Notes: a model not told the origin generated them from the sequence alone. A stretch of DNA of 13,310 bases from Promethearchaeota archaeon (GCA_011364925.1 RDOA01000069.1:1-13310), one strand, 5' to 3'. Positions 22 to 13,310 are shown, numbered from the stretch's first letter. Made by a program: numbers and translations.

Positions 22-897
22 TTGGTTGAATTTTCTAAAGACTATACTGTGGACGAAATGATAACCGTTTTAATGGCAAGGGAAGTCCGCAATGATGATG
101 TTATGATTGTTGGAGTCGCAACACCCTGCGTGTGGGCTGCGTTCACTTTGGCTAAAATGACGCACGCTCCAAACGCTATATTTCATTACATTATGGGAAA
201 TACTTTTGTTGATGAACCCCGCCAAGTATCATTACTTTATTTAGAAATGAATACAGCAAGAGCATATCGCTTTCAAAACTCTGGCGAATGCACGCTAGAA
301 TCCCTCCCATCAGAAAAACTTACTACAATTGAGTTTTTTAGACCGGCACAAGTAGATCAATACGGGAATACGAACAATGTTTGTATTGGAGACTATTATC
401 AGCCTAAAATTCGATTACCGGGTTGTGCCGGAATAGCGGACTTTAGTATGTTCTACGCCCGGGGATCTTTTTTATATACTCCTCGTCACGATACTCGGAC
501 ATTCGTTCCAACAGAAAAATTAGATTTTATTTCGGGAGTTGGCTTCCCTAATGGCAAGCCTTCAATATGTGGTGGTGCTGGTCCACAATGCGTAATATCA
601 AACTTAGGTTATATGGATTTCGATGAGAAGACTAAAAGAATGAAGTTAGCTTCAATTCATCCCGATGTTGATCTAGATGAAGTAATAAAATCAACTGGGT
701 TTGATTTAATTATTCCCGAGAACATCCAAAAGACAAAACCTCCGAGCGTGAAAGAAATTAACACATTGAGAGAGAAAGTTGATCCTCTAAAAATTAGAAA
801 ATTGGAAATTTTATCAGGCAAAGAAAGAGAAACATTATTGAATGATGTTATCTATAAAGAACTAAAGAAGCCAATGAAATTTCCTAAAAGGTTATAA
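22..897 (+). CDS. Family I CoA-transferase beta-subunit homolog (GctB/AibB/IpdB-like); catalytic Glu apparently absent; true start uncertain
   Basis: Shows the GctB-type N-terminus DYTVDEM..MARE..D.VMIVGVATP, AKMTHAP, AQVDQYGNTN, RLPGCAG, VISNLG..DFD, and LASIHP.V..DEV...TGFDL. The start is TTG at 22, but frame +1 is also open from base 1 (QNVWGKV), so the gene may extend past the window edge. Confidence 0.88.
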   Translation: MVEFSKDYTVDEMITVLMAREVRNDDVMIVGVATPCVWAAFTLAKMTHAPNAIFHYIMGNTFVDEPRQVSLLYLEMNTARAYRFQNSGECTLESLPSEKLTTIEFFRPAQVDQYGNTNNVCIGDYYQPKIRLPGCAGIADFSMFYARGSFLYTPRHDTRTFVPTEKLDFISGVGFPNGKPSICGGAGPQCVISNLGYMDFDEKTKRMKLASIHPDVDLDEVIKSTGFDLIIPENIQKTKPPSVKEINTLREKVDPLKIRKLEILSGKERETLLNDVIYKELKKPMKFPKRL

Positions 898-902
898 TTT
901 AA

Positions 903-1940
903 ATGCTCTCGCTTGATGGGTGGATTAATGGTCTTTCCTCATTGATTATTTTACTCTCGGGCTTGTTATTTGGATTCTTTTTAATATATAAAGCAATAAG
1001 AACCCACGCAAAATTATTAGGTGTAATGGGTATTGCTATGATATTACTTGGATTAGTCTTTTTGGGTTTAACTACCGAATTTTTTGTAGTGCTTTTATCT
1101 GGGATGAATCTAGACAATTCAGGGGGGATTATAGGCATTTTAGGGTATTTTTGGGTTGCCTTTGCTGTAATACCAGCGGTCTATATAGGTTCAGAGTTAA
1201 TTTTTCCGAAAGTTAAATGGTATTTGGTTGTTGTTTTTAGTGTATTAGGTATTTTCTACGAATTAATACTTTTCCTTGATACGGCAAGTTCATTCAATTT
1301 TACATATCCAAATATTCCTGGAGAAGATCTAATTGACGATCCTTTGGTAATAGGATCACCTTTTTTCTTGTTCTTTCTAAGTTATGTAGGCATAAGTATC
1401 ATTTTTGATGGATTAGGGTGTTTAATTAAAGGCTTAAAATCAGAGGGAATCATAAGAAAGAAATTATTTTTTTTATCTTTGGGATTTTTAATATTTCTTT
1501 CAGTTGGTACATTAGACCAACTTCACCTTCCAGGTATCGTATTGCTTTTCGTCAGGATACCCATGATTGTAAGCTTTTGGTTGTGGTATGTGGGATTAAG
1601 GGAGGTATCGATAGAAAAGAAACCAAAACCAAAAAAGGAAGTTAAAGTTGAAGAAGGACTTTTTAGATTAATTCGAAGACCAGATAATATCACTGAAGAA
1701 GAGATTTCCATTTCCAAAGAGAAAAAGATCTGCCTTGTGTGTAAAGGGAAAGCTACAGGAATTACTTTTATTTGTACTGAATGTGAAGCAATTTACTGTG
1801 TGAACTGCTCTCAAGCAATTTCTAACTTGGAAAATAGATGCTGGGTTTGTAATGCTCCTATTGATCCCACGAAACCAGTTAAAGAAATTGTTAACCAGGT
1901 AAAACCTGAACTAGAAATAGATGTAAAAAAAAAGGAATAG
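903..1940 (+). CDS. Seven-transmembrane protein with C-terminal C4C4 RING-like zinc finger
   Basis: About 7 hydrophobic segments in aa ~8-232, then a Lys/Glu-rich linker, then C-x2-C-x10-C-x2-C-x4-C-x2-C-x10-C-x2-C (aa 277-316, nt 1731-1850). Confidence 0.85.
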   Translation: MLSLDGWINGLSSLIILLSGLLFGFFLIYKAIRTHAKLLGVMGIAMILLGLVFLGLTTEFFVVLLSGMNLDNSGGIIGILGYFWVAFAVIPAVYIGSELIFPKVKWYLVVVFSVLGIFYELILFLDTASSFNFTYPNIPGEDLIDDPLVIGSPFFLFFLSYVGISIIFDGLGCLIKGLKSEGIIRKKLFFLSLGFLIFLSVGTLDQLHLPGIVLLFVRIPMIVSFWLWYVGLREVSIEKKPKPKKEVKVEEGLFRLIRRPDNITEEEISISKEKKICLVCKGKATGITFICTECEAIYCVNCSQAISNLENRCWVCNAPIDPTKPVKEIVNQVKPELEIDVKKKE

Positions 1941-1946
1941 AATTCC

Positions 1947-2672
1947 TTACGGATATAATATGTATAATTTGATAATGCGTCCTGTTTTTTCAAACCTTAT
2001 TAGATTTTTTCTAAGTAATTTGTCAATATGATATTTAATGGAATTTCGGGAGAGGTTAGTTATTCGTGATATCTCACTAGAATTAGTTCCTGGATTATTT
2101 TTAATTATGTTTAATATTTCCAATGTAGTTTTTGATTTACTAAATTGATTTTTAAAAACTTTAATTGCATCTTCTGATGTAGTAATAGGAAAATAAATGG
2201 TGTATTGTCCGGATTTTTCTTTTTTAACAATGTTATGTCTTAATAAGGTATCTATGTGCCATTGTAATTGACCTTTTGTCAAATTGCAGCTTCGTAGCAA
2301 TTCATTGTGATGAATCCCAGGATTATTGAGAATTTGCTTTAGTATATTTAAACGATTTTCGTTTTGGAATATATCTGCAAGAGTTAAATAAGATCTGCTT
2401 TCGTTTACATAGCTCCGTCGAATAAAATAGTTATGATATTCCTTTACTGTAAGAGCTGTAAGAGTCAGTACAATTATTATGGTTGGTACTAATAAGATTA
2501 CTAATAACGATCTGAGAAAAATTACATCTGGATCGAAAACATCGTATTTCTGTAATAATATTATTAAGTATAATATAATCGATAAGAAAACGGATGAAAA
2601 AATAAAAAGAATAATTTTAATTGCGAAATTTTTTCTGAATTTTCCAGATTGTGTTATGTAATTCAATTTCAT
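1947..2672 (-). CDS. Membrane-anchored winged helix-turn-helix transcriptional regulator with two wHTH repeats (ArsR/HTH_24-like)
   Basis: Two N-terminal hydrophobic helices, then two similar repeats: ILKQILNNPGIHHNEL..SCNLTKGQLQWHIDTL and ILNIIKNNPGTNSSEISRITNLSRNSIKYHIDKL, each followed by a wing. Confidence 0.85.
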   Translation of the reverse strand: MKLNYITQSGKFRKNFAIKIILFIFSSVFLSIILYLIILLQKYDVFDPDVIFLRSLLVILLVPTIIIVLTLTALTVKEYHNYFIRRSYVNESRSYLTLADIFQNENRLNILKQILNNPGIHHNELLRSCNLTKGQLQWHIDTLLRHNIVKKEKSGQYTIYFPITTSEDAIKVFKNQFSKSKTTLEILNIIKNNPGTNSSEISRITNLSRNSIKYHIDKLLRKNLIRFEKTGRIIKLYILYP

Positions 2673-2677
2673 GGTAA

Positions 2678-3310
2678 TTAATATTGATTATCTGTTATTG
2701 TTTTATGACTTGGGAATTTCAAGAACGGTATAATAAAAGACACCTTATTTTTATACTCTAGGAATCCATCTCCGTATTTAGCTTTTAAGGCGATCTCTTC
2801 GATCTTTCCCAAAATAAGATAAGCTACTACTTCAACAATCCAAATTAGAGTCAAAATGCTATAACGATGTTCGTAAGAAACTGAAACTCTAAATATTGGG
2901 GAAGTCTGAAATGCCACTATCGTCATTCCTAATGTCATAATCATAAAAGCAAGGTATTGAGGATGCCTTGTAAACCTATAGGGGCCTTTCGTCAATAATC
3001 GACCTCTATGAGACAGTTGGTAGACTAAACTATACACATACAATATTAATCCAAATAATACCACATAGAATCCTTCAGTTCTGATTAGAAATTGGATGTC
3101 GTACCAAAGAATTTGGGGGAACTGAAAATAGAGAAGTATATACGCTAATAGTGGAACGCTCATAATCCCAAACCAAATTGCTGTACACGGAACATATTGG
3201 AAAATCGGAATTAATAGAGAAGTTATGGTGGTAAGAATTGAATTTATTTTAAATTTTACTTTGCTACTTTGTTGTTGCATTTTAAGTTTTACACCTTTAG
3301 TTATTTTCAT
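2678..3310 (-). CDS. Isoprenylcysteine carboxyl methyltransferase / PEMT-family integral membrane methyltransferase
   Basis: Has L.TKGPYRFTRHPQYL, the EE..L..KYG..F..Y...V..IIP motif and several TM segments. An alternative ATG lies at 3280. Confidence 0.82.
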   Translation of the reverse strand: MKITKGVKLKMQQQSSKVKFKINSILTTITSLLIPIFQYVPCTAIWFGIMSVPLLAYILLYFQFPQILWYDIQFLIRTEGFYVVLFGLILYVYSLVYQLSHRGRLLTKGPYRFTRHPQYLAFMIMTLGMTIVAFQTSPIFRVSVSYEHRYSILTLIWIVEVVAYLILGKIEEIALKAKYGDGFLEYKNKVSFIIPFLKFPSHKTITDNQY

Positions 3311-3330
3311 TGAAAAAGAAAAAACATAGC

Positions 3331-3344
3331 ATTTAAAGCTTTAA
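3331..3344 (-). promoter_or_regulatory. Candidate BRE/TATA and palindromic site upstream of the methyltransferase-regulator pair
   Basis: The - strand reads TTAAAGCTTTAAAT about 20-35 nt before ATG 3310. TTAAAGCTTTAA (3333-3344) is a perfect 12-bp palindrome. Confidence 0.4.
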
Positions 3345-3402
3345 GGTGCACTTGTCTAACAATAACCAAAATTTATGGATCTAATTCTTATATATAAGAT
3401 AG

Positions 3403-3410
3403 AAAAAAAA
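3403..3410 (-). terminator. Archaeal-type oligo(T) terminator of the esterase gene
   Basis: A8 on the + strand reads T8 on the - strand, 10 nt after the esterase stop codon. Confidence 0.5.
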
Positions 3411-3420
3411 GAAGCTAAAT

Positions 3421-4920
3421 TTAAATAATACCGTTCCAAGCAGCGCGTTCTTCGTCGAGAAATTTCTCAACTACTTTAAATTCTTTGTTTATTAGCATTG
3501 TGGATCTCTTTTCTGTATCGTATGGAGGCCAATTAGGAATCCCGGCGTGATTTGGATTTCCCGTACGGGCGAAAGCAATCCACGAATCCATCATATTATT
3601 ACTGATAAGCTCCAATTCGGGGCTTTTGCTTATAAGTTGTTGAAATTCTGGAGCGTCAAAAGTGTTAAAGACAAAAGGTAATTCCATAGCATGAGAAGCT
3701 CCTAATGCTCCGTTTAATGCCGGAGATGGAAAAGTAAAAACGTAAGTGTAAGTGTTAGGTTGGTACTTACTTTGCGCTTCAAGTAATCGAATCGTAGAAA
3801 TACGAAAAATATAATCTGTCATAAGGGCGTTCATAATTTCTTTAGGGTCGTTTGAAAACTTGCCCTCTCTCGCTTGTTTGTATATTTCGATTATTTCTTT
3901 ACTTTTGGCGTTATCAATACCTAACCTTCCTAAGAATCCCATTAGAAACATATCACCATTAGCAACATTCATCTTACGTATTTCAGGATCAAGCACAGTA
4001 AATAATTTAGTTTCATCCAAGTTGGTACCTATCATAAAGTCAATATTTTTACAATCACCGTTTTGAAACGCCTTTAAAGGATGAGTTGGTAATATTTCAC
4101 CATCGATAAGAGGTCGAAAAGCAAGAAGATTTAAAGCATCTTCTGCCATAAACTCATTCTGTGCATCTATTATTTTTTCGGGAGATATTTTTCTATTTGT
4201 GCTAAAGTCGTTCTTATCAACGCCTAATTTACGCATTACCTTATTTGTAGGTTTTTTAGTAACCTTTGGATCTATTGCTGGAGCGCTTTGGGCTATAATG
4301 CGATGGAAAAGACCTTTAGCAGCGGGTGTAGCAGCTAAGGCAACTACAGAATAACCACCAGCAGATTCACCAAAAATTGTTACACAGTTTGGATCGCCTC
4401 CAAATAAGGCAATATTGTCGTGAACCCATTTAAGCGCTAAGACTTGATCAAGATGTCCAGCATTAACCGTCACACCTGGAATATACGAATACCCTAATAC
4501 GCCTAACCGATAATTAATAGTGACTACGACGACATCTCCTCGTCGGGCTAATGTTGAACCATCGTACATAGGACTAATTCCTCCTCCCATAATAAAAGCA
4601 CCTCCATGAATCCAGAACATTACTGGACGCTCCTTATTATCTGTAGCTGGCGTCCAAATATTAAGATTCAAACAATCTTCACTCTCAGGTTGAAGCTTTC
4701 CCGTATAATCCTCGAGATTCGAATATCCTTGATATGAACATGCACTGTATTCATTAGCTTCAAACACACCTTCCAGCGGTTTTTTCGCAACTGGAGCTGA
4801 AAAGCGTAATTCCTCGATGGGAGGTTCAGCATAAGGTATTCCCTTAAAAATTACTAAATTTTCTTCTTTATACCCTTGTATCTTACCAGACGTGGTATTA
4901 ATTATATCTGATTTATCCAT
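3421..4920 (-). CDS. Type-B carboxylesterase/lipase (para-nitrobenzyl esterase-like, alpha/beta hydrolase)
   Basis: Has FKGIPYAEPP, SEDCLNLNIW, WIHGGAF (oxyanion hole), NYRLG, GESAG (nucleophile Ser), GTNLDE (acid) and ASHAMEL (His). I moved the start from 4992 to the ATG at 4920 (MDKSDII), which matches the family N-terminus. No signal peptide is evident. Confidence 0.93.
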   Translation of the reverse strand: MDKSDIINTTSGKIQGYKEENLVIFKGIPYAEPPIEELRFSAPVAKKPLEGVFEANEYSACSYQGYSNLEDYTGKLQPESEDCLNLNIWTPATDNKERPVMFWIHGGAFIMGGGISPMYDGSTLARRGDVVVVTINYRLGVLGYSYIPGVTVNAGHLDQVLALKWVHDNIALFGGDPNCVTIFGESAGGYSVVALAATPAAKGLFHRIIAQSAPAIDPKVTKKPTNKVMRKLGVDKNDFSTNRKISPEKIIDAQNEFMAEDALNLLAFRPLIDGEILPTHPLKAFQNGDCKNIDFMIGTNLDETKLFTVLDPEIRKMNVANGDMFLMGFLGRLGIDNAKSKEIIEIYKQAREGKFSNDPKEIMNALMTDYIFRISTIRLLEAQSKYQPNTYTYVFTFPSPALNGALGASHAMELPFVFNTFDAPEFQQLISKSPELELISNNMMDSWIAFARTGNPNHAGIPNWPPYDTEKRSTMLINKEFKVVEKFLDEERAAWNGII

Positions 4921-5171
4921 TTTAATCTTTTTATGCAATTTATTATTTGATTTTATTATTATTATAATTCGAGGATTATTAAAGAATATCAAAAAAAAAT
5001 TAAATTCTTCGCTTTAAGATTCGTAAATATTGCTTATTATTGGTATTACCAAAATTCTTTTCATTAGGGCAAGGGTGAATATATTAATAAAGGATTATTC
5101 AAAAATCATTATTAACGCAATATTCGAAAGATTTTTGTTATTTTTCTATTCCTTAAATGTGAAAAATAATT
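4921..5171. promoter_or_regulatory. Divergent promoter region between esterase and larA-aor
   Basis: 251-bp very AT-rich spacer between divergent genes. It contains the palindrome TTGGTA-T-TACCAA (5040-5052). Confidence 0.45.
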
Positions 5172-6410
5172 ATGGTACAAACTTTTAATATACCATGGGC
5201 AGCATGGTATGGGGATAAAGACATACAGCTTGAATTTCCTGATACATGGGATGTGAATGTATTTGAGATGGAAGACACTTCAGAACTCTCTCAAGCAGAT
5301 ATAAAAAAAGCTTTAGATAATCCTATTGGGACGCCTACAATTCTAGAACTAACAAAAGGGAAGAAGAACGCAGTAATTGCCGTTGAAGACATATCAAGAC
5401 CAACTCAAGTTGAAACGGTTTTAGAATTAGTCTTAAACCAATTAAACGTGGCTGGTATCACTGATGACAACATCACATTAATCTTTGCTGTAGGTGCTCA
5501 CCGCCCCATGAATAGACTAGATTTAATTAAGAAAATAGGAGCAAAAAATGCTGACAGAATAAATGTAGAAAATCATCATCCGTACGAGAATCTTGTATAT
5601 ATTGGAGAATCATCTAATCAAACTCCCGTTTTTTTAAACAAATCTTACTACAATGCCGAAATAAAAATTTCGATTAGTTCTGTGGTTCCACATCCTTTAG
5701 CAGGATTTGGAGGTGGTGCCAAAGTAGTTTTACCGGGATTGTGTGGGATTCAAACTCTTGAAGCAAATCATAAGGCAGGAGTTAGAGGGATAGGAATCGG
5801 TTTAGGAATAGTAACAGAACTCAGGAAAGACATCGAAGAGACTTGCAAACTGGCAGGTTTAGATTTCTCTATAAACATTATTCCTACAATGAATAGAAAA
5901 ATTGGTGGGATTTTCGCTGGTGATTTTATCAAAGCACATCGAGCGGCAATGGAATTTGCAAAAAGAGTGTATTCGACAAATTTACAACCTAATTTAAGGC
6001 TTGACATTGGATTCTTTAACTTATATCCGGAAGATACAGAACTTTCTCAAGCTTTAAAAGGATTGAATTTCATTTTAAAATTGAACACGATTATTAAACG
6101 AGAAGGAGCGGTAATTATCATGACAGCAGCTAGTGAAGGTCGAGGATTTCATTCACTATTAGGTGAAACTGGAGCTAAGTTATATAAAAATTGGGGTGAA
6201 GGTGTTATCTTTAAAGCTGTCTTAAAAAATAAAAGGTTCGGCATCTTCTCTCAAAACATTAGTAAATCGGATGTATTCCATTATTATCCCAAAACAACTA
6301 TTTTTAAAACTGATTTCCAAGAATTAGTGAGAGAACTCGAAAGCATCTATGGAAATTCACCTAAAGTGGGTATATTCCCCAGTAGTAATCAATTACCTAA
6401 AGAATCTTAA
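5172..6410 (+). CDS. LarA-family nickel-pincer nucleotide (NPN)-dependent 2-hydroxy-acid racemase/epimerase; substrate probably not lactate
   Basis: Conserved LarA residues: D73/R76 (EDISRP), H110 (GAHRP), H174 and K184 (PHPLAGFGGGAKVVLPG), H200 (ANH), Q293/K296 (LSQALKG). Confidence 0.9.
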   Translation: MVQTFNIPWAAWYGDKDIQLEFPDTWDVNVFEMEDTSELSQADIKKALDNPIGTPTILELTKGKKNAVIAVEDISRPTQVETVLELVLNQLNVAGITDDNITLIFAVGAHRPMNRLDLIKKIGAKNADRINVENHHPYENLVYIGESSNQTPVFLNKSYYNAEIKISISSVVPHPLAGFGGGAKVVLPGLCGIQTLEANHKAGVRGIGIGLGIVTELRKDIEETCKLAGLDFSINIIPTMNRKIGGIFAGDFIKAHRAAMEFAKRVYSTNLQPNLRLDIGFFNLYPEDTELSQALKGLNFILKLNTIIKREGAVIIMTAASEGRGFHSLLGETGAKLYKNWGEGVIFKAVLKNKRFGIFSQNISKSDVFHYYPKTTIFKTDFQELVRELESIYGNSPKVGIFPSSNQLPKES

Positions 6411-6427
6411 TAAGGAAATAATTTAGA

Positions 6428-8290
6428 ATGGCAGAAAACACAATTGGAAAGATTTTAGAAGTAAACTTAAATAAGCAATCATTTCAAGAAAACATTGTTA
6501 ATAAGCAGTTGATTACTCACTTATTAGGAGGACCTGGTTTTGCGATTGATCTCTTAATGAGAGAAAAAGCGTATCAATATAATTCTTTAGATAAGGACAA
6601 TCCGTTAATATTTGTTAACGGGCTTTTAACTGGCACAACCTATCCTTGTTCAGCATTTTATTCAGTGTCGGCCAGATCTCCTTTAACTGACATATACGGT
6701 GAGGGTATTTCTGGAGGTTTCTTTGGCGCTGAATTAAGAAAAAGTCTAACTGGAATCATCTTTAAAGGTATAGCTAACTCTCCAGTTTATTTGGTAATTA
6801 ATGAGGATCATTGTGAACTTAGAGATGCTTCCTCTGTTTGGGGATTACCTACGGATGATACAATTAAGCAGCTCCATTCAAAACTAGGGAAACAATTTAA
6901 GATAGCTTGTATTGGGCCTTCTGGAGAAAAAGGAGTTTTGTTATCTTCAATTATGAACGATCACCACAGAGCTGCGGGAAGAACCGGTATGGGAGCAGTT
7001 ATGGGCTCAAAAAACCTAAAAGCAATCGCAGTAAAAAGTTCTAAAAAAATTGAATACTTTAACGAAGAAAAATTCAAGAGCATTTCTAAAGAATTATTTG
7101 TTTCGTTTCAAAAATCTCCAATGGCTGAAATTCTCCGTAAATTTGGAACTAATAATATCACATATTTTGAACGATTATGGGATGTTCCCCATAAAAATTG
7201 GACATTACATAAATGGCGAGAAGTATCCAACATCTCTGGGGAAGTAGTTTTAGAAAAGTATCACATTAGAAATAAACCATGCCACCTTTGCCCCTTTATG
7301 TGTGGAAGGGAAATAGAAATAAAGGAGGGCCCTTATGAAATTCATAATGCTGCGGGTGCAGAATACGAGACGACTGCTGCGTTTGGTTCTATGTGTTTAA
7401 TATCAGATGTGGAGGCTATAGCATATTTAAACCATCTTTGTAATAGGATGGGAGTTGATACCATTTCTACCGGTTGCACAATTGCTTTTGCGTTAGATTG
7501 CTACGAGCACGGAATAATTACCGAAGATGATGTTGGCTTTCCATTAGAGTGGGGCGATACTAAAGCTATTGTTAGAATAGCAGAACTAATATGCGCTAAG
7601 GAAGGAATAGGCAAAACATTAAGTATGGGCTCAAAAAAAGCTTCAAAAGTGTTTGGTAAAGAATCCGAGGAATTTTTAACCGATGTTAAAGGTCTTGAAG
7701 CACCTATGCACGATCCTAGAGCGATATACCCTCTTGGTCTTCAATATGCAACCTCTAACCGAGGTGCTTGTCATGGACGTGGTTATGGAAATGACCAGTA
7801 TTCTGGTTTTACTGGTTTTAATGATATCCTAAAAATAACTAAAGAAAAACCTATGAGAGAAACTACCGTTGATGACCCCAAATTTGCAAAAGATATCATG
7901 GTAACTCAAAACTTAGCAGAAGTTGTAAACTCTTTAGGAATTTGCAAACAAACAATGACTTCTGGCTCTCAAATTGTTGACAACCTGCTTAACAGAATTA
8001 TTGATGTTATCTATTATTTAACTGGGGTTAAATTTACCCTCAAAGAGTTAATGGAAGTAGGAGATCGAATTTTTACTTTAAAACGATTGTTTAATACTAA
8101 ATGTGGAATTTCTAAAAAAGACGACATCCTTCCACCAAGATTACAATTTCCATTAGAACGAGGACTTACAAAGAACAAAATAGTAAAAATTAAAGATATG
8201 CTTGAAGAGTATTATAGACTAAGAGGTTGGGATGATAATGGGATACCAACCAGAAAAAAATTGACAGAATTGAAAATAGACTATTACTAA
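6428..8290 (+). CDS. aor: Aldehyde:ferredoxin oxidoreductase family (tungstopterin, [4Fe-4S])
   Basis: Has SPLT, IGPSGE, AAGRTGMGAVMGSKNLKAI, CHLCPFMC (Fe-S ligands), EYET, NRMGVDTISTG, HDPR, NRGACH, NSLGIC and YYRLRGWDDNGIP. It lies 17 bp after the larA homolog. Confidence 0.93.
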   Translation: MAENTIGKILEVNLNKQSFQENIVNKQLITHLLGGPGFAIDLLMREKAYQYNSLDKDNPLIFVNGLLTGTTYPCSAFYSVSARSPLTDIYGEGISGGFFGAELRKSLTGIIFKGIANSPVYLVINEDHCELRDASSVWGLPTDDTIKQLHSKLGKQFKIACIGPSGEKGVLLSSIMNDHHRAAGRTGMGAVMGSKNLKAIAVKSSKKIEYFNEEKFKSISKELFVSFQKSPMAEILRKFGTNNITYFERLWDVPHKNWTLHKWREVSNISGEVVLEKYHIRNKPCHLCPFMCGREIEIKEGPYEIHNAAGAEYETTAAFGSMCLISDVEAIAYLNHLCNRMGVDTISTGCTIAFALDCYEHGIITEDDVGFPLEWGDTKAIVRIAELICAKEGIGKTLSMGSKKASKVFGKESEEFLTDVKGLEAPMHDPRAIYPLGLQYATSNRGACHGRGYGNDQYSGFTGFNDILKITKEKPMRETTVDDPKFAKDIMVTQNLAEVVNSLGICKQTMTSGSQIVDNLLNRIIDVIYYLTGVKFTLKELMEVGDRIFTLKRLFNTKCGISKKDDILPPRLQFPLERGLTKNKIVKIKDMLEEYYRLRGWDDNGIPTRKKLTELKIDYY

Positions 8291-8367
8291 GTTTTACTTG
8301 TCTCAAATTCTTAAAGCTTTTTTAATACCTTCATTCTATCACATATTATAACTAAATTTTTGAATAT

Positions 8368-9780
8368 GTGAATAAAATGGAAAAAGATCCAACCAGTGAT
8401 TATTCTGCAAAAGGAGCAGTAGGTTATAGTTTTGGGCAAATATCACTTATTACCTCGTATCAGGCATTTACATTTTTAATCTTTACATTCTACTTTGCAG
8501 TAGTAGGGATTCCTGTAGACCTTATTACATTAGGATTCATTATCTGGTCGATCTGGAACGCTTTTAATGATCCTTTGATGGGATTTCTTAGTGACCGAAC
8601 TCACACTCGGTGGGGTCGTCGTAGACCCTATATAATGTTCTTTTTGGGTCCGTTAGCTGCTGTCATGTTCTTTTTGTTCTTTCCACCTCTAACCTACGGA
8701 ATTACGGACACTACGATTAACTTTATCTATTTCGTTGTCATAATTATGGTTTTTGAATTCTGTTATACGACTTACGATATTAATCTCACCTCTATGTTAC
8801 CAGAAATATTTATCACAAAAGACACACGAATGAAAGCAAATAACATCCGTCAAGTTTTCGCTATTATAGGACTAATTTTTGCTTTTCTCCTTCCAGGATT
8901 TTTTATTGAGGATTATTCAAATAAGGATTACATCAATAATTACGCCTTCTTTGGAATAACATTGACGGTTATCATAGTAATCGTAGGTATTCTCTTTTTA
9001 AAGTTCACTCCAAGAGAAAGGCCTGAGTTTCAACAGGATCATAAAGATGTCCCGGGTTTCTTCACTTCTTTTAGGACTACTTTGAAAAATAAATCTTTCA
9101 GATTAGCAGTACCGGCTTTTATCGGAGATTTTTTCGTAGATACTATTCTGCCTACAATTATACCTTTATACGGAAAGTATGTATTAAAGCAAGAAGGAAT
9201 AATATTATCGCTTTTACTAGGAGTAGCTTTTATCGCCGCTGCTTTATCAATTACAGTTATATGGAAACCATTGGCTAGAAGAATCGGGATAAGGAAAATG
9301 TGGATGATTTCTTCTGCAGTTTGGATGGTTACGTTATTTCCTTTAATTTTTGATTTAAATCTCATTTTTGCTTTCATCGTATTTTTCCTTGTTGGTATAG
9401 GATTAGGAGGATCGCTCTATTCTAAAGATTTAATTGTTTCAGACATTATTGATGAAGACGAGGTAAGAACAGGGACTAGAAGAGACGCTAGTTTCTTTGG
9501 CAGTTACATTTTTTTCTTGAGAGTAGGTTATATTTTCGTTTTTCTTGCAATTAGTCTTGTTTTCACTAATGTAGGCTGGAAGATCTACGAACCTGACGTT
9601 ACAGCAATTACTGCGAAGCAAATTTTAGGATTAAAATTCTTAGCTTTCGTTTATCCGGCGATGGCACTTACATTTATCATTTTAGCAATGTGGTTTTATC
9701 CATTGCATGGAGAATATCTTAAAGAAATCAAAACTAAATTAGCTAGAATGCATGAGGATAAAAAAGCACGACTTAGTTAG
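8368..9780 (+). CDS. MFS glycoside-pentoside-hexuronide (GPH, MelB-like) cation symporter
   Basis: Has the GPH signature WNAFNDPLMGFLSDRTHTRWGRRRPY, SDIIDEDE..TG.RR....FG, and about 11-12 TM segments. The start is GTG 8368 or ATG 8377. Confidence 0.92.
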   Translation: MNKMEKDPTSDYSAKGAVGYSFGQISLITSYQAFTFLIFTFYFAVVGIPVDLITLGFIIWSIWNAFNDPLMGFLSDRTHTRWGRRRPYIMFFLGPLAAVMFFLFFPPLTYGITDTTINFIYFVVIIMVFEFCYTTYDINLTSMLPEIFITKDTRMKANNIRQVFAIIGLIFAFLLPGFFIEDYSNKDYINNYAFFGITLTVIIVIVGILFLKFTPRERPEFQQDHKDVPGFFTSFRTTLKNKSFRLAVPAFIGDFFVDTILPTIIPLYGKYVLKQEGIILSLLLGVAFIAAALSITVIWKPLARRIGIRKMWMISSAVWMVTLFPLIFDLNLIFAFIVFFLVGIGLGGSLYSKDLIVSDIIDEDEVRTGTRRDASFFGSYIFFLRVGYIFVFLAISLVFTNVGWKIYEPDVTAITAKQILGLKFLAFVYPAMALTFIILAMWFYPLHGEYLKEIKTKLARMHEDKKARLS

Positions 9781-9791
9781 CAATTTAGTAA

Positions 9792-9802
9792 TTTTTTTTT
9801 TT
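9792..9802 (+). terminator. Archaeal-type oligo(T) terminator of the larA-aor-GPH unit
   Basis: T11 run 11 nt after the transporter stop, in the 36-bp gap between convergent genes. Confidence 0.6.
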
Positions 9803-9816
9803 ATCTTTAATTCCTT

Positions 9817-11493
9817 TTAAAACTTCAATATTGCGCCTTCTGCTGCGGAAGCCACAAGTTTTTTATATTTTAATAACGCTCTACTTTTTATTGGATTTTC
9901 TATTGGTTTCCAACTTGTTAACCTCTCGTTAATTTCTTCTGGAGAAAGATGAACATTAAGCGTTCTGTTCGGAATGTCAATACTAATTGTGTCTCCATTT
10001 TGAACAATAGCAATAGGCCCTCCTACATATGCTTCTGGACTAACGTGGCCAATACACGGACCCGAGGTGCCTCCTGAGAAACGTCCATCGGTAATTAATG
10101 CTACGTGTTGTAAATTTCTCTTTAACATTAGCGTTGCAGTTACCGCTAATAATTCTGGCATACCCGGGGCTCCTTTAGGACCCTCGTATCTTATAATGAG
10201 CGCAGAACCGTCAGGAATTTTGTTCAATGCTAAATCGTTAAGAACATCAACTTCAGAATTATAACATTGAGCAGGACCTACGAAATTAAGCATACCTTTA
10301 TCTTTTATTCCTGATTGCTTAATTACAGCACCATTTGGCGCCAAATTTCCTTTTAGAACGACAGTTCCACCTTCTGGATATACTGGATTATTTAAGGGTC
10401 TAATTATATCATCATCTAAAACTTGGCTTCTCCTAAAAGTTTTCCCTATAGGTCTCCCAGATACTGTCATACAATCTAAGTTAAGAAAATCTTTTATCCT
10501 ATTCATAACAGCAGGAATACCACCAGCTTTGTATAAATCTACAACTCCGTAATTACCTGAAGGATAAACATTAGCAATTGTGGGTATTTTTTTGCTGTAT
10601 TTATTAAAAAGCTCGAGATCGAATTCAATTCCCATTTCATACGCAATTGCTGGGAGATGTAATGCTGAATTTGTTGATCCTCCAATTGCTAAATCGACCA
10701 TAAGAGCATTCTCTAAAGATTCTCTCGTCATGATCTGAGAAGGAGTAATACCATTTTCGAGTAATTTCATAATTTGTTTGCCTGAATTCCTTGCTAAAAC
10801 GTATTTCATGTTGGTAACGGCAGGTATAGTGGCAGCATTTGGCAGTGTCATCCCAAATGCCTCCATTAGGCATTGAAATGTGTTAGCTGTACCCATTATT
10901 TCACAAGCCCCAAAACTTGCACACGTAACACATTTAACTTTGTTGTTAAAGTCATCGTATTTTTTTTCATCTATTCCAGAGTAATCAGGGGAAAATTCAA
11001 TCTCCCAGAAGCTTGGACCTCCCGGAACGCATATAGTTGGGATGTCTAAACGAATTGCTGCCATTAACATTGCGGGATTTATCTTATCGCAGGATGATAT
11101 TGTTACAAGTGCATCTAAACTGTGGGCTTCGACCATTAGTTCTACAGAATCAGCTATAACTTCTCGATGTGGTAGAATATGTTTCATCCCTTCATTTCCA
11201 TTTGCCCAACCATCGCAAGGCGCAACTGTACAGAATTCAAAAGGCAAACCTCCCGCTTCTAGAATTCCATATTTTACAGCTTCTGCAATTCTATTGAGGT
11301 GGGCGTGTCCTGGATTAATTTCATTCCAAGAATTTGCAATTCCGATAAATGGTTTACTATCGATATCTTTATCTTCGAAACCTGCGCCCTTAATTATACC
11401 CCGAGTAACATAATTAAAGGGTGTGGTTTTAGTGTATTCGAATATACGATTACTTCTTGATTTAATCTGGGAATTTTTATCATTCATTTTCAT
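9817..11493 (-). CDS. IlvD/Edd-family Fe-S dehydratase, likely a sugar-acid (aldonate) dehydratase
   Basis: Has NPGHAHL, CDG, CDK (C135/K137), GAC..MGTANT (C197), GGSTN..LHLPAIA, LKGNLAP.GAVIK, RYEGPKG.PGMPE, TDGRFSGG and IGHVSPEA. The family call is secure; the substrate is inferred. Confidence 0.92.
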   Translation of the reverse strand: MKMNDKNSQIKSRSNRIFEYTKTTPFNYVTRGIIKGAGFEDKDIDSKPFIGIANSWNEINPGHAHLNRIAEAVKYGILEAGGLPFEFCTVAPCDGWANGNEGMKHILPHREVIADSVELMVEAHSLDALVTISSCDKINPAMLMAAIRLDIPTICVPGGPSFWEIEFSPDYSGIDEKKYDDFNNKVKCVTCASFGACEIMGTANTFQCLMEAFGMTLPNAATIPAVTNMKYVLARNSGKQIMKLLENGITPSQIMTRESLENALMVDLAIGGSTNSALHLPAIAYEMGIEFDLELFNKYSKKIPTIANVYPSGNYGVVDLYKAGGIPAVMNRIKDFLNLDCMTVSGRPIGKTFRRSQVLDDDIIRPLNNPVYPEGGTVVLKGNLAPNGAVIKQSGIKDKGMLNFVGPAQCYNSEVDVLNDLALNKIPDGSALIIRYEGPKGAPGMPELLAVTATLMLKRNLQHVALITDGRFSGGTSGPCIGHVSPEAYVGGPIAIVQNGDTISIDIPNRTLNVHLSPEEINERLTSWKPIENPIKSRALLKYKKLVASAAEGAILKF

Positions 11494-11580
11494 TATCGCA
11501 TTAGAGTAGTGTAAATAAGTTTATAATAAAAAAAGTATCAATTTAATTATATTTTGATAAATTCTTAAGGCTTTAGAATC
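11494..11580. promoter_or_regulatory. Compact divergent promoter region between the dehydratase and the aldolase-hydrolase genes
   Basis: 87-bp AT-rich spacer. TATA-like TTATAAAC on the - strand (11525-11518) lies about 25 nt before the 11493 start, and TTTAATTA (11542-11549) lies about 30 nt before 11581. There is no SD, which is consistent with leaderless transcripts. Confidence 0.5.
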
Positions 11581-12246
11581 GTGGAAAAGTTAGAATCAAT
11601 TTTAAACGAATATTCGAGACTTTATACTTGTGCTGTTTCAGATGCAATTGACGAGCTAGGACTTGAAGCTGGGTTTCTTGACCCTCTAATAAGACCTATG
11701 TGGGCAGGAGCGCGCATTCTTGGATTAGCAGGAACTATGAAAATGGTTCTGTCTGACGAACCACTTGATAGAAATATTATTGCTCGCCTTACAAAATTCA
11801 TGCGGAAAAGTCCGAAATTTCCAATTATGTGCGTCGACATGTCAGATCAAATGATCGCCGCGGGTTTAGGACAGAGCACCAGCAGACTGTTATTGGGGCT
11901 GGGATTTAAAGGAGGTTTGGTTGATGGCCCTATTAGAGATATTTCTCAAGTTCTTGCTCTTAAATTTCCAATTTTCGCTCGTGGAATTATAGCGTCATCC
12001 ATTAGGGGAAGAATGAACATTGACTTAGATTCGGTTATGAAACCTATACATTGTGGAGGTAGAATTGTATCTCCCGGTGACCTCATTTTTGGAGACATTA
12101 ACGGAGTAGTGATAGTTAAACAAAACGATATTGAAGCCGTGTTAAAAAAAGCCAAGGAGATTATTGCCACTGATAAGTGGTGGTTTGAACAGTTGGAAAA
12201 AGGAAGGGATCCTTCCGAGATTGAGAAGGAAAAAGAATTACCGTAA
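11581..12246 (+). CDS. RraA / HMG-CHA aldolase family protein (putative class II pyruvate aldolase)
   Basis: Has T.AVSDAID, G.A.T, VDGPIRD, FPIFARG and CGG..VSPGDLIFGDINGVVIV. GTG start. Confidence 0.88.
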   Translation: MEKLESILNEYSRLYTCAVSDAIDELGLEAGFLDPLIRPMWAGARILGLAGTMKMVLSDEPLDRNIIARLTKFMRKSPKFPIMCVDMSDQMIAAGLGQSTSRLLLGLGFKGGLVDGPIRDISQVLALKFPIFARGIIASSIRGRMNIDLDSVMKPIHCGGRIVSPGDLIFGDINGVVIVKQNDIEAVLKKAKEIIATDKWWFEQLEKGRDPSEIEKEKELP

Positions 12247-12276
12247 AATCATAATAATTAGTTTTTCTTAAAAAAA

Positions 12277-13310
12277 ATGAGTGATGAACAAATAGAAATT
12301 AGTCTTGTAGATATCGAAGCTTTAAAATCTGTTTTTGAGTTATTTTCTACTTTTCTTAATAAGTTTCCAGTGAGAAAACCTAAATTCAATATTGATCGAT
12401 TTAGAAGAAAAATTGAAGAATTGGAGCATAAATACCATAAAAAAGAAGAATCCGTGTACAAAGACTTTATAAATCTATTGAACAAATTGAAATTAACAAT
12501 TCAGAAGGTGGTCGAACCAGAAATGCTTTATATCGTAGGATGGCACGGAGGAATTGTCATTGATGAAATTGGTTTTTGTGAATTTGACGATCCGAAATAT
12601 GCTATGGATCGTTTGATTGAGAATATTCGAATTGCTATAGAAAACGAGATGCCTTATAACTTAGAAGTAGTTGGTAGTTGTTTAAGGTGGTTAAATAAAA
12701 GATATCCTTATAATTTCAAAAAATTCCTCGATTTATTTGAACAAGGGAAGTCTGAAATCATTAATCCTTCTTATTCGCAACCATACAACTTAATTATTGG
12801 TCCAGAGTCTAACATTAAGCACTTTGAATTCGGATTAAGAAATTTGAAAGAACTTGGGTTAGATTCACACTCATTTTACTGTTCAGAAAGCTCAGTTCAC
12901 CCTCAATTGCCTCAAATCCTAAAAGGGTTCAATATTAAATATGCTTCGCTGAGAACTCGCTTGCTAGGGGTAAATCCTACTGCAAATTCTCCACATATTA
13001 ATTGGATAGGCTTAGATAATACAAAGATCGATACTATTATAGATCAATCAGGGGTGTTTAATGGTGAATATTGGCACGGAACTTTTTTTCAAGAATTACC
13101 TAATTTATTATTTCAAGCTGTCGCTCGCCCATATATGAAAAGAATAGTATCTACAACCATTGAAGATTTTATACATAAAATGCCATACCACGAAGCGATC
13201 TGGCGAATATCTAAATATTCAGATGTTTTTGGGAAATTTTTAGGGTTAACAGAATTCTTCGAATTGACTGAGAAGGATGGGGATTTCAAATACATTAGAG
13301 ACGAATTTCG
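12277..13310 (+). CDS. Glycoside hydrolase of the GH38/GH57 (beta/alpha)7-barrel type, partial (runs off window end; not in the ORF track)
   Basis: Translated by hand: ATG at 12277 and no stop for 344 codons (MSDEQIEISLVDIEALK...). Motifs G.SEIINPSYSQP..LIIGPESNIKHFEFG, HPQLPQILKGFNIKYA and WIGLDNTKI resemble the GH38 N-terminal domain. Confidence 0.8.
   Translation, partial: MSDEQIEISLVDIEALKSVFELFSTFLNKFPVRKPKFNIDRFRRKIEELEHKYHKKEESVYKDFINLLNKLKLTIQKVVEPEMLYIVGWHGGIVIDEIGFCEFDDPKYAMDRLIENIRIAIENEMPYNLEVVGSCLRWLNKRYPYNFKKFLDLFEQGKSEIINPSYSQPYNLIIGPESNIKHFEFGLRNLKELGLDSHSFYCSESSVHPQLPQILKGFNIKYASLRTRLLGVNPTANSPHINWIGLDNTKIDTIIDQSGVFNGEYWHGTFFQELPNLLFQAVARPYMKRIVSTTIEDFIHKMPYHEAIWRISKYSDVFGKFLGLTEFFELTEKDGDFKYIRDEF

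Follow-up and report, generated by a model that had tools for sequence, protein, structure and literature searches.

Gene content and conservation of the cluster

Six contiguous genes occupy positions 5172-13310 of a 13,310-nucleotide stretch of DNA from Promethearchaeota archaeon (GCA_011364925.1, RDOA01000069.1:1-13310), here called the window. The window is the entire contig C82 from the genome of a sediment Asgard archaeon of the Lokiarchaeia (3.9 Mb, 33% GC), with relatives labelled Promethearchaeota or Lokiarchaeia. Most likely, the cluster serves to import a glycoside and to convert its sugar, via a sugar acid, into pyruvate; its enzymes belong to known kinds but are unusual and uncharacterised. 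A first-pass annotation, made by a model from the sequence, had proposed a kinase-free sugar or sugar-acid pathway at this site. Its six open reading frames were all recovered at the same positions and on the same strands, and Pfam and NCBIfam upheld its family assignments; none of the six proteins reached a named NCBIfam equivalog cut-off. The genes are:

5172-6410, + strand: LarA, putative nickel-pincer isomerase (Lar_N, 174 bits, Pfam)
6428-8290, + strand: putative aldehyde:ferredoxin oxidoreductase, AOR (AFOR_N/C, Pfam)
8368-9780, + strand: GPH symporter (MFS_2, 189 bits, Pfam)
9817-11493, - strand: IlvD/Edd dehydratase (ILVD_EDD_N/C, Pfam)
11581-12246, + strand: RraA-fold protein (RraA-like, 82 bits, Pfam)
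12277-13308, + strand: N-terminal part of a glycosidase, open at the contig end (weak GH57 and GH38N matches)

From larA to the glycosidase gene, the intergenic gaps are 17, 77, 36, 87 and 30 nt. As had been claimed, neither a kinase nor an aldose dehydrogenase nor a class I aldolase is encoded in the window. The contig end does not seem to have cut away any pathway gene, because in complete relatives the genes downstream of the glycosidase are unrelated to the pathway. The C-terminal half of the glycosidase was not found on any other contig of the genome. A promoter and terminator scan, run with a bacterial model, gave counts at chance level and was not used.

The grouping is far beyond chance: at least 16 further loci, some of them redundant, contain the complete set of six, arranged in three different orders. 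Across 67 partly redundant loci, all of them with RraA, IlvD was present in 54, the glycoside hydrolase (GH) in 52, AOR in 33 and LarA in 20, with a GPH symporter of type A in 22 and of a second subfamily, type B, in 20. The RraA orthologue occurred in 37 of the 400 phylum genomes searched, all belonging to one class, and co-occurrence was counted over the 161 genomes of that class (37 RraA-positive, 124 RraA-negative). The RraA-positive genomes carried the GH (37), the IlvD subfamily (35), LarA (32) and AOR (27, or 28 with a contig-end piece). The AOR orthologue was found in none of the RraA-negative genomes, and the GH, IlvD and LarA in 21, 24 and 66 of them. Because the class-wide AOR search was limited to the scoring of seven candidates in each genome, it may have missed some orthologues; the contig-end piece was one that was recovered. 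Both the synteny across loci and the co-occurrence of RraA, GH, IlvD and AOR bear out the proposal that these genes belong together.

The cluster is modular, as remnant loci show. Decay products at one chromosomal site comprise larA-ilvD, GH only, GH-GPH, GH-larA and GH-ilvD (L161-L164, L191, L202, L206-L208). A contig titled 'Nanopelagicaceae bacterium' (DATKTW010000125.1, L040) bears the cluster at 80% identity and is grouped with genomes of the same genus; its label is probably wrong.

Family assignment and active sites of the six proteins

By its Lar_N domain and its residues, LarA is assigned to the nickel-pincer 2-hydroxy-acid racemase/epimerase family, in a subfamily outside the named ones. 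Its scores lie under every NCBIfam LarA cut-off (best 229 of 500). The catalytic and nickel-pincer nucleotide (NPN) residues D73, R76, H110, H174, K184, H200, Y285 and K296 are retained, including the equivalents of R75, H108, H174, K184 and H200 that define the superfamily. Genes for the NPN cofactor (larB, larC, larE) are likewise present in the genome, in agreement with the NPN dependence that had been predicted. At the specificity positions 175/176 the protein has P,L, where lactate racemase has F,F. The gluconate 2-epimerase GntE, in contrast, is marked by E, V, A and H, respectively, at positions 175, 176, 358 and 359 of LarA (PMC11770544), of which the first two align with confidence in the cluster protein; the cluster LarA scored 28 of 500 bits against the hexonate-epimerase model NF052594. 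Hence, the suggested example of mannonate-to-gluconate epimerisation lacks residue backing; in addition, the glycosidase lacks the Asp nucleophile and a Zn ligand of GH38.

GntE and LarAH group 22 share their NPN-binding and catalytic residues with the cluster LarA. The pairing of LarA with COG0129 was tabulated in 2020 for 30% of LarAH group 22 (PMC7583248 Table S1), but COG0684 (RraA) and COG2414 (AOR), both present in the cluster, are absent from that supplement. LarA is the loosest cluster member, its subfamily occurring in 98 of the 161 class genomes. Several of its nearest non-Asgard relatives adjoin sugar ABC/TRAP transporters, GH116 or Gfo/Idh/MocA genes. A second LarA in the genome (C36; L031:6753-8033) has F,F and W,E at its specificity positions and is thus of the lactate-racemase type. 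Another LarA subfamily, ~50% identical, often adjoins histidine-utilisation-like genes in Lokiarchaeia (judged from N-terminal readings; L181, L182, L183, L185, L186, L189), and a deltaproteobacterial relative of it adjoins urocanase (L158). Imidazolelactate racemase is a possible lead for this subfamily.

The AOR protein carries AFOR domains with the CxxCxxxC and EYE motifs expected of the tungsten AOR family, and the solved structures nearest to it are AORs (383-386 bits, compared with 218 bits for WOR5). It would thus be an AFOR-family aldehyde:ferredoxin oxidoreductase, tungsten-type by family, from a cluster-specific clade. Because the genome holds 16 AOR and 15 GPH-like paralogues, chance adjacency is a real concern. 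This concern is countered by the quick tree, where the 36 AORs from clusters group in a single clade (SH-aLRT 100) separate from 14 genome paralogues.

The dehydratase likely starts at ATG 11487 (556 aa) and contains the motifs PGH, PCDG, CDK, CxxMGTAN and GRFS. The IlvD/Edd superfamily residues C93, C135-D136-K137, C197 and S473 are invariant, while the helix region that follows the third motif is shorter by ~13 residues than in the housekeeping paralogue. It falls under the ilvD cut-offs (613 versus 618 and 628 versus 644), whereas the paralogue on contig C19 passes them (659, 666) and is found in 24 of 24 genus genomes; this near-universal C19 protein is likely the housekeeping enzyme. The cluster subfamily occurs in 57-59 of the 161 class genomes, so that it shows neither the equivalog score nor the universal distribution of a branched-chain amino acid (BCAA) IlvD. 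Its features point to an accessory Fe-S IlvD/Edd subfamily, distinct from the housekeeping IlvD, and the worry that it might be the genome's only IlvD can be set aside. NCBIfam scoring places it outside the known [2Fe-2S] sugar-acid dehydratases.

The RraA-fold protein has a variant metal motif, Q98-X20-R119-D120-X2-Q123. R119, D120, D172 and D198 are invariant, and Q98 and Q123 occur in 127 and 125 of 129 homologues. The basic residues R142 and R144, and also R102, K54 and R38, are nearly invariant. The metal motifs of HMG/CHA aldolases, named for 4-hydroxy-4-methyl-2-oxoglutarate and 4-carboxy-4-hydroxy-2-oxoadipate, are D-X20-R-D or G-X20-R-D-X2-E/D, and HMG aldolase has a metal-binding Asp that aligns with a Gln of the cluster protein. 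The cluster enzyme departs from both forms (the existence of two motifs is documented, PMC5065237), having Gln at the two positions other than the catalytic Arg-Asp, and scored far under the ligK cut-offs. Yet, its predicted model matches the HMG/CHA aldolase 3noj of Pseudomonas putida (TM 0.68, 22% identity by structural alignment). The RraA fold and the catalytic Arg-Asp are also shared with FlDet of Flavobacterium, a dehydratase/decarboxylase of the sugar acid KDGR (PMC8563752). These characterised enzymes serve aromatic or alginate degradation, whereas the context here is glycoside catabolism. We propose that the cluster protein is a 2-keto-3-deoxy-acid aldolase. In a variant cluster (L036:330-7238, L043), GH4, an amidohydrolase and a PPC/DUF296 protein accompany a second RraA, whose motif is of the G type (RDxxE).

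The transporter scored 167 against the TIGR00792 cut-off of 231. It is classed, by its MFS_2 domain, as a GPH-like glycoside:cation symporter, and the second GPH subfamily takes its place elsewhere.

Only 344 N-terminal residues of the glycosidase lie in the window, compared with ~800-840 aa in orthologues (full length ~810 aa). Its reading frame matched GH57 with 36 bits and GH38N with 23 bits, the latter under its cut-off. The model of a full-length orthologue, however, matched GH38 alpha-mannosidases end to end (E about 1e-25, 12-14% identity), across the catalytic, middle and C-terminal domains. The best 40 Foldseek matches of this model were all GH38 (TMq <=0.67; atlas TM 0.71-0.79). Within this GH38 architecture, to which N-terminal helices have been added, E204, H90 and D297 are invariant, and the His-Asp and acid/base Asp positions are retained. 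In contrast, the nucleophile site, aligned to the Asp of Ams1, holds a GH57-like Glu in 124 of 124 sequences, and the H-x-D zinc motif of GH38 reads H-G-G, with one Zn ligand missing. The Glu means that mannose is not implied as the sugar. The enzyme is probably active, to judge from these residues, but need not be a mannosidase. The family comprises ~153 proteins, and the members with names are all Asgard; these Glu-nucleophile GH38-fold proteins likely represent a new glycosidase family or subfamily. The label 'mannosylglycerate hydrolase' was rejected, its weak match (22-44 of 1138 bits) being taken as general GH38 likeness.

Gene replacements and enzymes encoded elsewhere

Four paralogous loci (L171, L172, L175, L177) combine the same IlvD subfamily with another AOR and an enzyme of the DHDPS/NAL family; LarA is present in three of them. 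RraA was assigned the aldolase slot because the DHDPS/NAL enzyme substitutes for it in these loci, and DHDPS/NAL is the aldolase family of the archaeal non-phosphorylative Entner-Doudoroff (npED) pathway (PMC2063504). As the DHDPS proteins score below every named cut-off, this swap is supporting evidence and not proof. The paralogous loci (L171:4868-14900, L172, L175, L177) further contain a split UxaA pair and a GPH gene, and the L171 and L172 DHDPS proteins have GSASE, leaving the usual Tyr motif pattern unmatched. Four genomes (G198, G199, G191, G003) carry both RraA-type and DHDPS-type modules.

A second replacement concerns AOR. A short-chain dehydrogenase/reductase (SDR) orthologue is limited, among the class genomes searched, to G027, G030 and G034, all without the AOR orthologue. 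It mostly lies beside a metallo-beta-lactamase-fold (MBL) gene, in rraA-SDR-MBL operons with ilvD and larA (families f2 and f4), and no locus compared combines SDR and AOR. No SDR orthologue was found in the present genome (best match 32%). High-GC, probably bacterial loci have SDR-RraA, one type being LarA-SDR-RraA-MBL with a different MBL subfamily. A layout of dehydrogenase plus lactonase is typical of oxidative sugar routes (PMC9795676). Since SDR plus MBL stands in for AOR, the replacement suggests that AOR does the same oxidation, perhaps on an aldose. However, AOR is linked more tightly to RraA than to GH or IlvD, which counts against aldose oxidation and would be expected if the enzyme oxidised the cleavage product, as the aldehyde oxidoreductase of npED does (PMC2063504). 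The odds are about even between free aldose and cleavage product as the substrate of AOR, which may also act on both. Both swaps are consistent with the aldolase and oxidation roles that the first-pass annotation had given to RraA and AOR. An iolB inositol gene near one bacterial RraA was discarded as a clue, because a transposase lies between them and the arrangement is not conserved.

The description 'kinase-free' holds for the locus but not for the genome. A KDG-kinase-like PfkB gene lies on C11 (C11:8042-9908, L222), with a Kce-like gene for beta-keto-acid cleavage directly behind it, and a KDPG/KHG aldolase (Eda, 220 bits) is encoded at C38:54174-54809. A MOFRL glycerate kinase-like protein on C51 is above the Pfam cut-off but below the glycerate kinase equivalog cut-offs. 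The KdgK-like and Eda genes each occur in ~80 of the 161 class genomes. KdgK-like genes are found in 31 of 37 cluster genomes versus 49 of the 124 others, an excess that fits KDG-like intermediates. On this comparison, the route in the present genome probably joins kinases encoded elsewhere, as in the branched archaeal ED pathway. Searches of four genomes with the cluster, from families f5/f6 and 82-93% complete, found neither Eda nor a close KdgK orthologue, and there RraA and AOR may be the only exit.

Proposed route and alternative explanations

We consider it fairly probable that the cluster encodes an oxidative, ED-like route through an aldonate, in which RraA is the aldolase and AOR is linked to ferredoxin. 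This reading rests on genes, families, active-site motifs, synteny, co-occurrence and gene swaps, from which all reactions and the substrate are inferred. The GPH symporter would take up a small glycoside, from which the cytoplasmic GH38-fold enzyme would release the sugar, to be oxidised to an aldonic acid. LarA might invert C2 if the acid is wrongly configured for the dehydratase, or racemise a hydroxy-acid product. The IlvD-family enzyme would dehydrate the acid to a 2-keto-3-deoxy acid, and the RraA-fold enzyme would cleave this to pyruvate and an aldehyde. The dedicated AOR would couple the oxidation of free aldose, cleavage product or both to ferredoxin. The KDG kinase-like, KDPG aldolase and glycerate kinase-like enzymes encoded outside the locus are probably linked to this route.

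The proposed logic of aldonate dehydration, aldol cleavage and ferredoxin-linked aldehyde oxidation is that of the npED and branched ED pathways of Thermoproteus, Sulfolobus and Thermoplasmatales (PMC2063504). The KDG kinase-like, KDPG aldolase and MOFRL glycerate kinase-like genes outside the locus may add to the likeness with branched ED, to which an aldehyde oxidoreductase and a class II glycerate kinase belong. In contrast, npED uses an enolase-family dehydratase, a DHDPS/NAL aldolase and entry by an NAD(P)-dependent aldose dehydrogenase. The cluster has IlvD/Edd and RraA-fold enzymes, no such dehydrogenase in the locus, and in addition a nickel-pincer isomerase, a GPH transporter and a GH38-fold glycosidase. 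The bacterial Dahms and Weimberg routes (PMC9795676, PMC9314677) do use IlvD/Edd dehydratases, and the SDR-plus-MBL variant of the cluster has their dehydrogenase-lactonase-dehydratase-aldolase layout. The cluster dehydratase, however, has PGH/PCDG instead of PCN and scores far under the L-arabinonate and D-xylonate dehydratase cut-offs, and its host is an anaerobe with AOR.

Several observations weigh against the aldonate route. No cluster enzyme has a characterised close relative, and the dehydratase scores nearer to dihydroxy-acid dehydratase models than to sugar-acid dehydratase models. Aldolase activity of the RraA protein is not assured, because Gln replaces the metal-binding Asp of HMG aldolase. 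The sugar-acid RraA enzyme found in the literature searched, FlDet, is a dehydratase/decarboxylase (PMC8563752). The SDR swap is based on two families only, and our literature search gave no paper on aldose oxidation by AOR. The genomes are related, so that the co-occurrence counts are not independent events, and RraA-negative genomes hold isolated pieces of the cluster (IlvD 24, GH 21, LarA 66).

A bolder version of the aldonate route, which we regard as possible but doubtful, is that the five enzymes form a self-contained, ferredoxin-linked and kinase-free cycle, with AOR, LarA and IlvD reused on the aldehyde product. The tungsten AOR would oxidise the free aldose straight to the aldonate, replacing dehydrogenase plus lactonase; LarA would set C2, IlvD would dehydrate and RraA would free pyruvate. 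The aldehyde would then be reprocessed, either from glyceraldehyde via glycerate to pyruvate, or as a longer aldose derived from a C7-C9 ulosonic acid. This would reconcile the SDR/lactonase swap, the strict tie between AOR and RraA, and the survival of larA-ilvD alone. If true, the cycle would be a natural counterpart of a synthetic cell-free cascade from glucose to pyruvate (PMC9314677).

A rather unlikely alternative is that the substrate is a uronic acid or a different sugar carrying a second acid group. Here, AOR (or SDR plus lactonase) would yield an aldarate, LarA would epimerise it and IlvD would dehydrate it. RraA would then cleave the keto-deoxy-aldarate, or dehydrate and decarboxylate it to 2-oxoglutarate semialdehyde, a substrate for AOR. 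Such an RraA product would explain why AOR never occurs without RraA, and R142 and R144 (also R102, K54, R38) could hold the distal anion. Yet, aldarates are usually dehydrated by enolase- or UxaA-family enzymes, in contrast to the IlvD of the cluster. Adjacent accessory glycosidases are annotated mostly for neutral sugars, and the PDB and NCBIfam matches listed for the SDR did not single out uronate dehydrogenase. Conversely, the characterised catabolic enzymes of the RraA fold use dicarboxylic 4-hydroxy-2-oxo acids (HMG/CHA, PMC5065237; FlDet on KDGR, PMC8563752). It is because FlDet is a dehydratase/decarboxylase of a dicarboxylic acid that the aldarate alternative is kept alive, and epimerisation of glucarate/mannarate has been proposed for one LarA homologue (PMC7583248).

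It is unlikely that there is no single linear pathway at all, and that GH plus GPH, IlvD plus LarA, and RraA plus AOR or SDR are loose modules acting on small, related hydroxy acids (glycerate, for example, being racemised and dehydrated), and that the RraA protein serves in decarboxylation or repair. Remnants at the same site do keep larA-ilvD alone (G231, G236, G243, G257), GH alone, GH-GPH or GH-larA. The remnant IlvDs nest within the RraA-linked clade, and IlvD is unlinked in families f5/f6. However, the GH is present in 37 and IlvD in 35 of the 37 RraA genomes even when unlinked, and the genes remain together despite several rearrangements. Moreover, a KdgK-like gene is present in all four genomes with larA-ilvD remnants, and Eda in three of them, so that the product could be handled by these enzymes instead.

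A sulfo-ED route is improbable. A sulfosugar would be converted via a sulfo-aldonate and a keto-deoxy sulfo-acid to pyruvate and sulfolactaldehyde, which AOR would oxidise to sulfolactate, with LarA racemising this for a SuyAB-type sulfolyase. The known route indeed has a PF00920 dehydratase and requires S-to-R sulfolactate racemisation, but its aldolase is PF03328, not RraA (PMC12421959). A PF03328 aldolase, a known sulfoquinovosidase and linked sulfolactate genes were not seen in the annotated RraA loci. A split UxaA pair adjoins LarA in paralogous loci of the DHDPS type and also occurs elsewhere in the genome, but it lies outside RraA clusters and scores as generic UxaA/GarD only. In four loci the GH is followed by a gene faintly like the sulfoquinovose isomerase SftI (40 of 700 bits), whereas the cluster AOR is nearer to AOR than to WOR5. 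At C112:93265-98258 (L045), a split UxaA pair lies by an AOR paralogue, a RidA-like gene and, by eye, a D-threonine aldolase/D-serine dehydratase-like gene.

Least probable of all is an ordinary BCAA dihydroxy-acid dehydratase in an incidental neighbourhood: its best profile matches are ilvD models, slightly under cut-off, and ilvC is in the genome, but the C19 second IlvD is the one that passes in every genus genome, and the cluster enzyme is patchy, is remodelled in the helix region and has no ilv/leu neighbours.

The accessory neighbours speak for the favoured aldonate route in being carbohydrate genes, but they vary: GH4, GH20, a GH15 glucoamylase accompanied by a sugar porter, a YdjC deacetylase, a FucI/SftI-like isomerase and DUF3604. 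They agree on carbohydrate but not on one sugar, in line with the earlier statement that the substrate is beyond reading from sequence. The GH genes of RraA-negative genomes, searched for substrate clues, showed only remnant or unrelated neighbourhoods.

The logic of the route (npED, Dahms) is known, and the LarA-plus-IlvD pairing is likewise on record. The gene combination, as had been surmised, has no description in the literature searched, where subscription papers were outside coverage; nor was a precedent found there for the enzyme set, the AOR-for-SDR swap or the Glu-nucleophile GH38-fold family. Lokiarchaeia are abundant in sediments and stand near the origin of eukaryotes, and their sugar metabolism is mostly known via generic annotation. 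Standard labels on the cluster genes are ilvD, RraA, lactate racemase and hypothetical. The cluster, found in roughly one in four of the class genomes searched, would represent an oxidative sugar-acid route overlooked by such annotation. It offers five candidate enzymes: a Glu-type GH38-fold glycosidase, an RraA with a new motif, a nickel-pincer isomerase, a distinct IlvD and a dedicated AOR. An aldose-oxidising AOR or a natural glycerate dehydratase, if true, would be of interest for biocatalysis.

Upstream of the cluster, window positions 22-4992 encode a CoA-transferase beta subunit, a membrane protein with C-terminal Cys motifs and 7 paralogues in the genome, a TM-wHTH regulator, an ICMT-like methyltransferase and a carboxylesterase. 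Several of these genes accompany the cluster in close relatives only.

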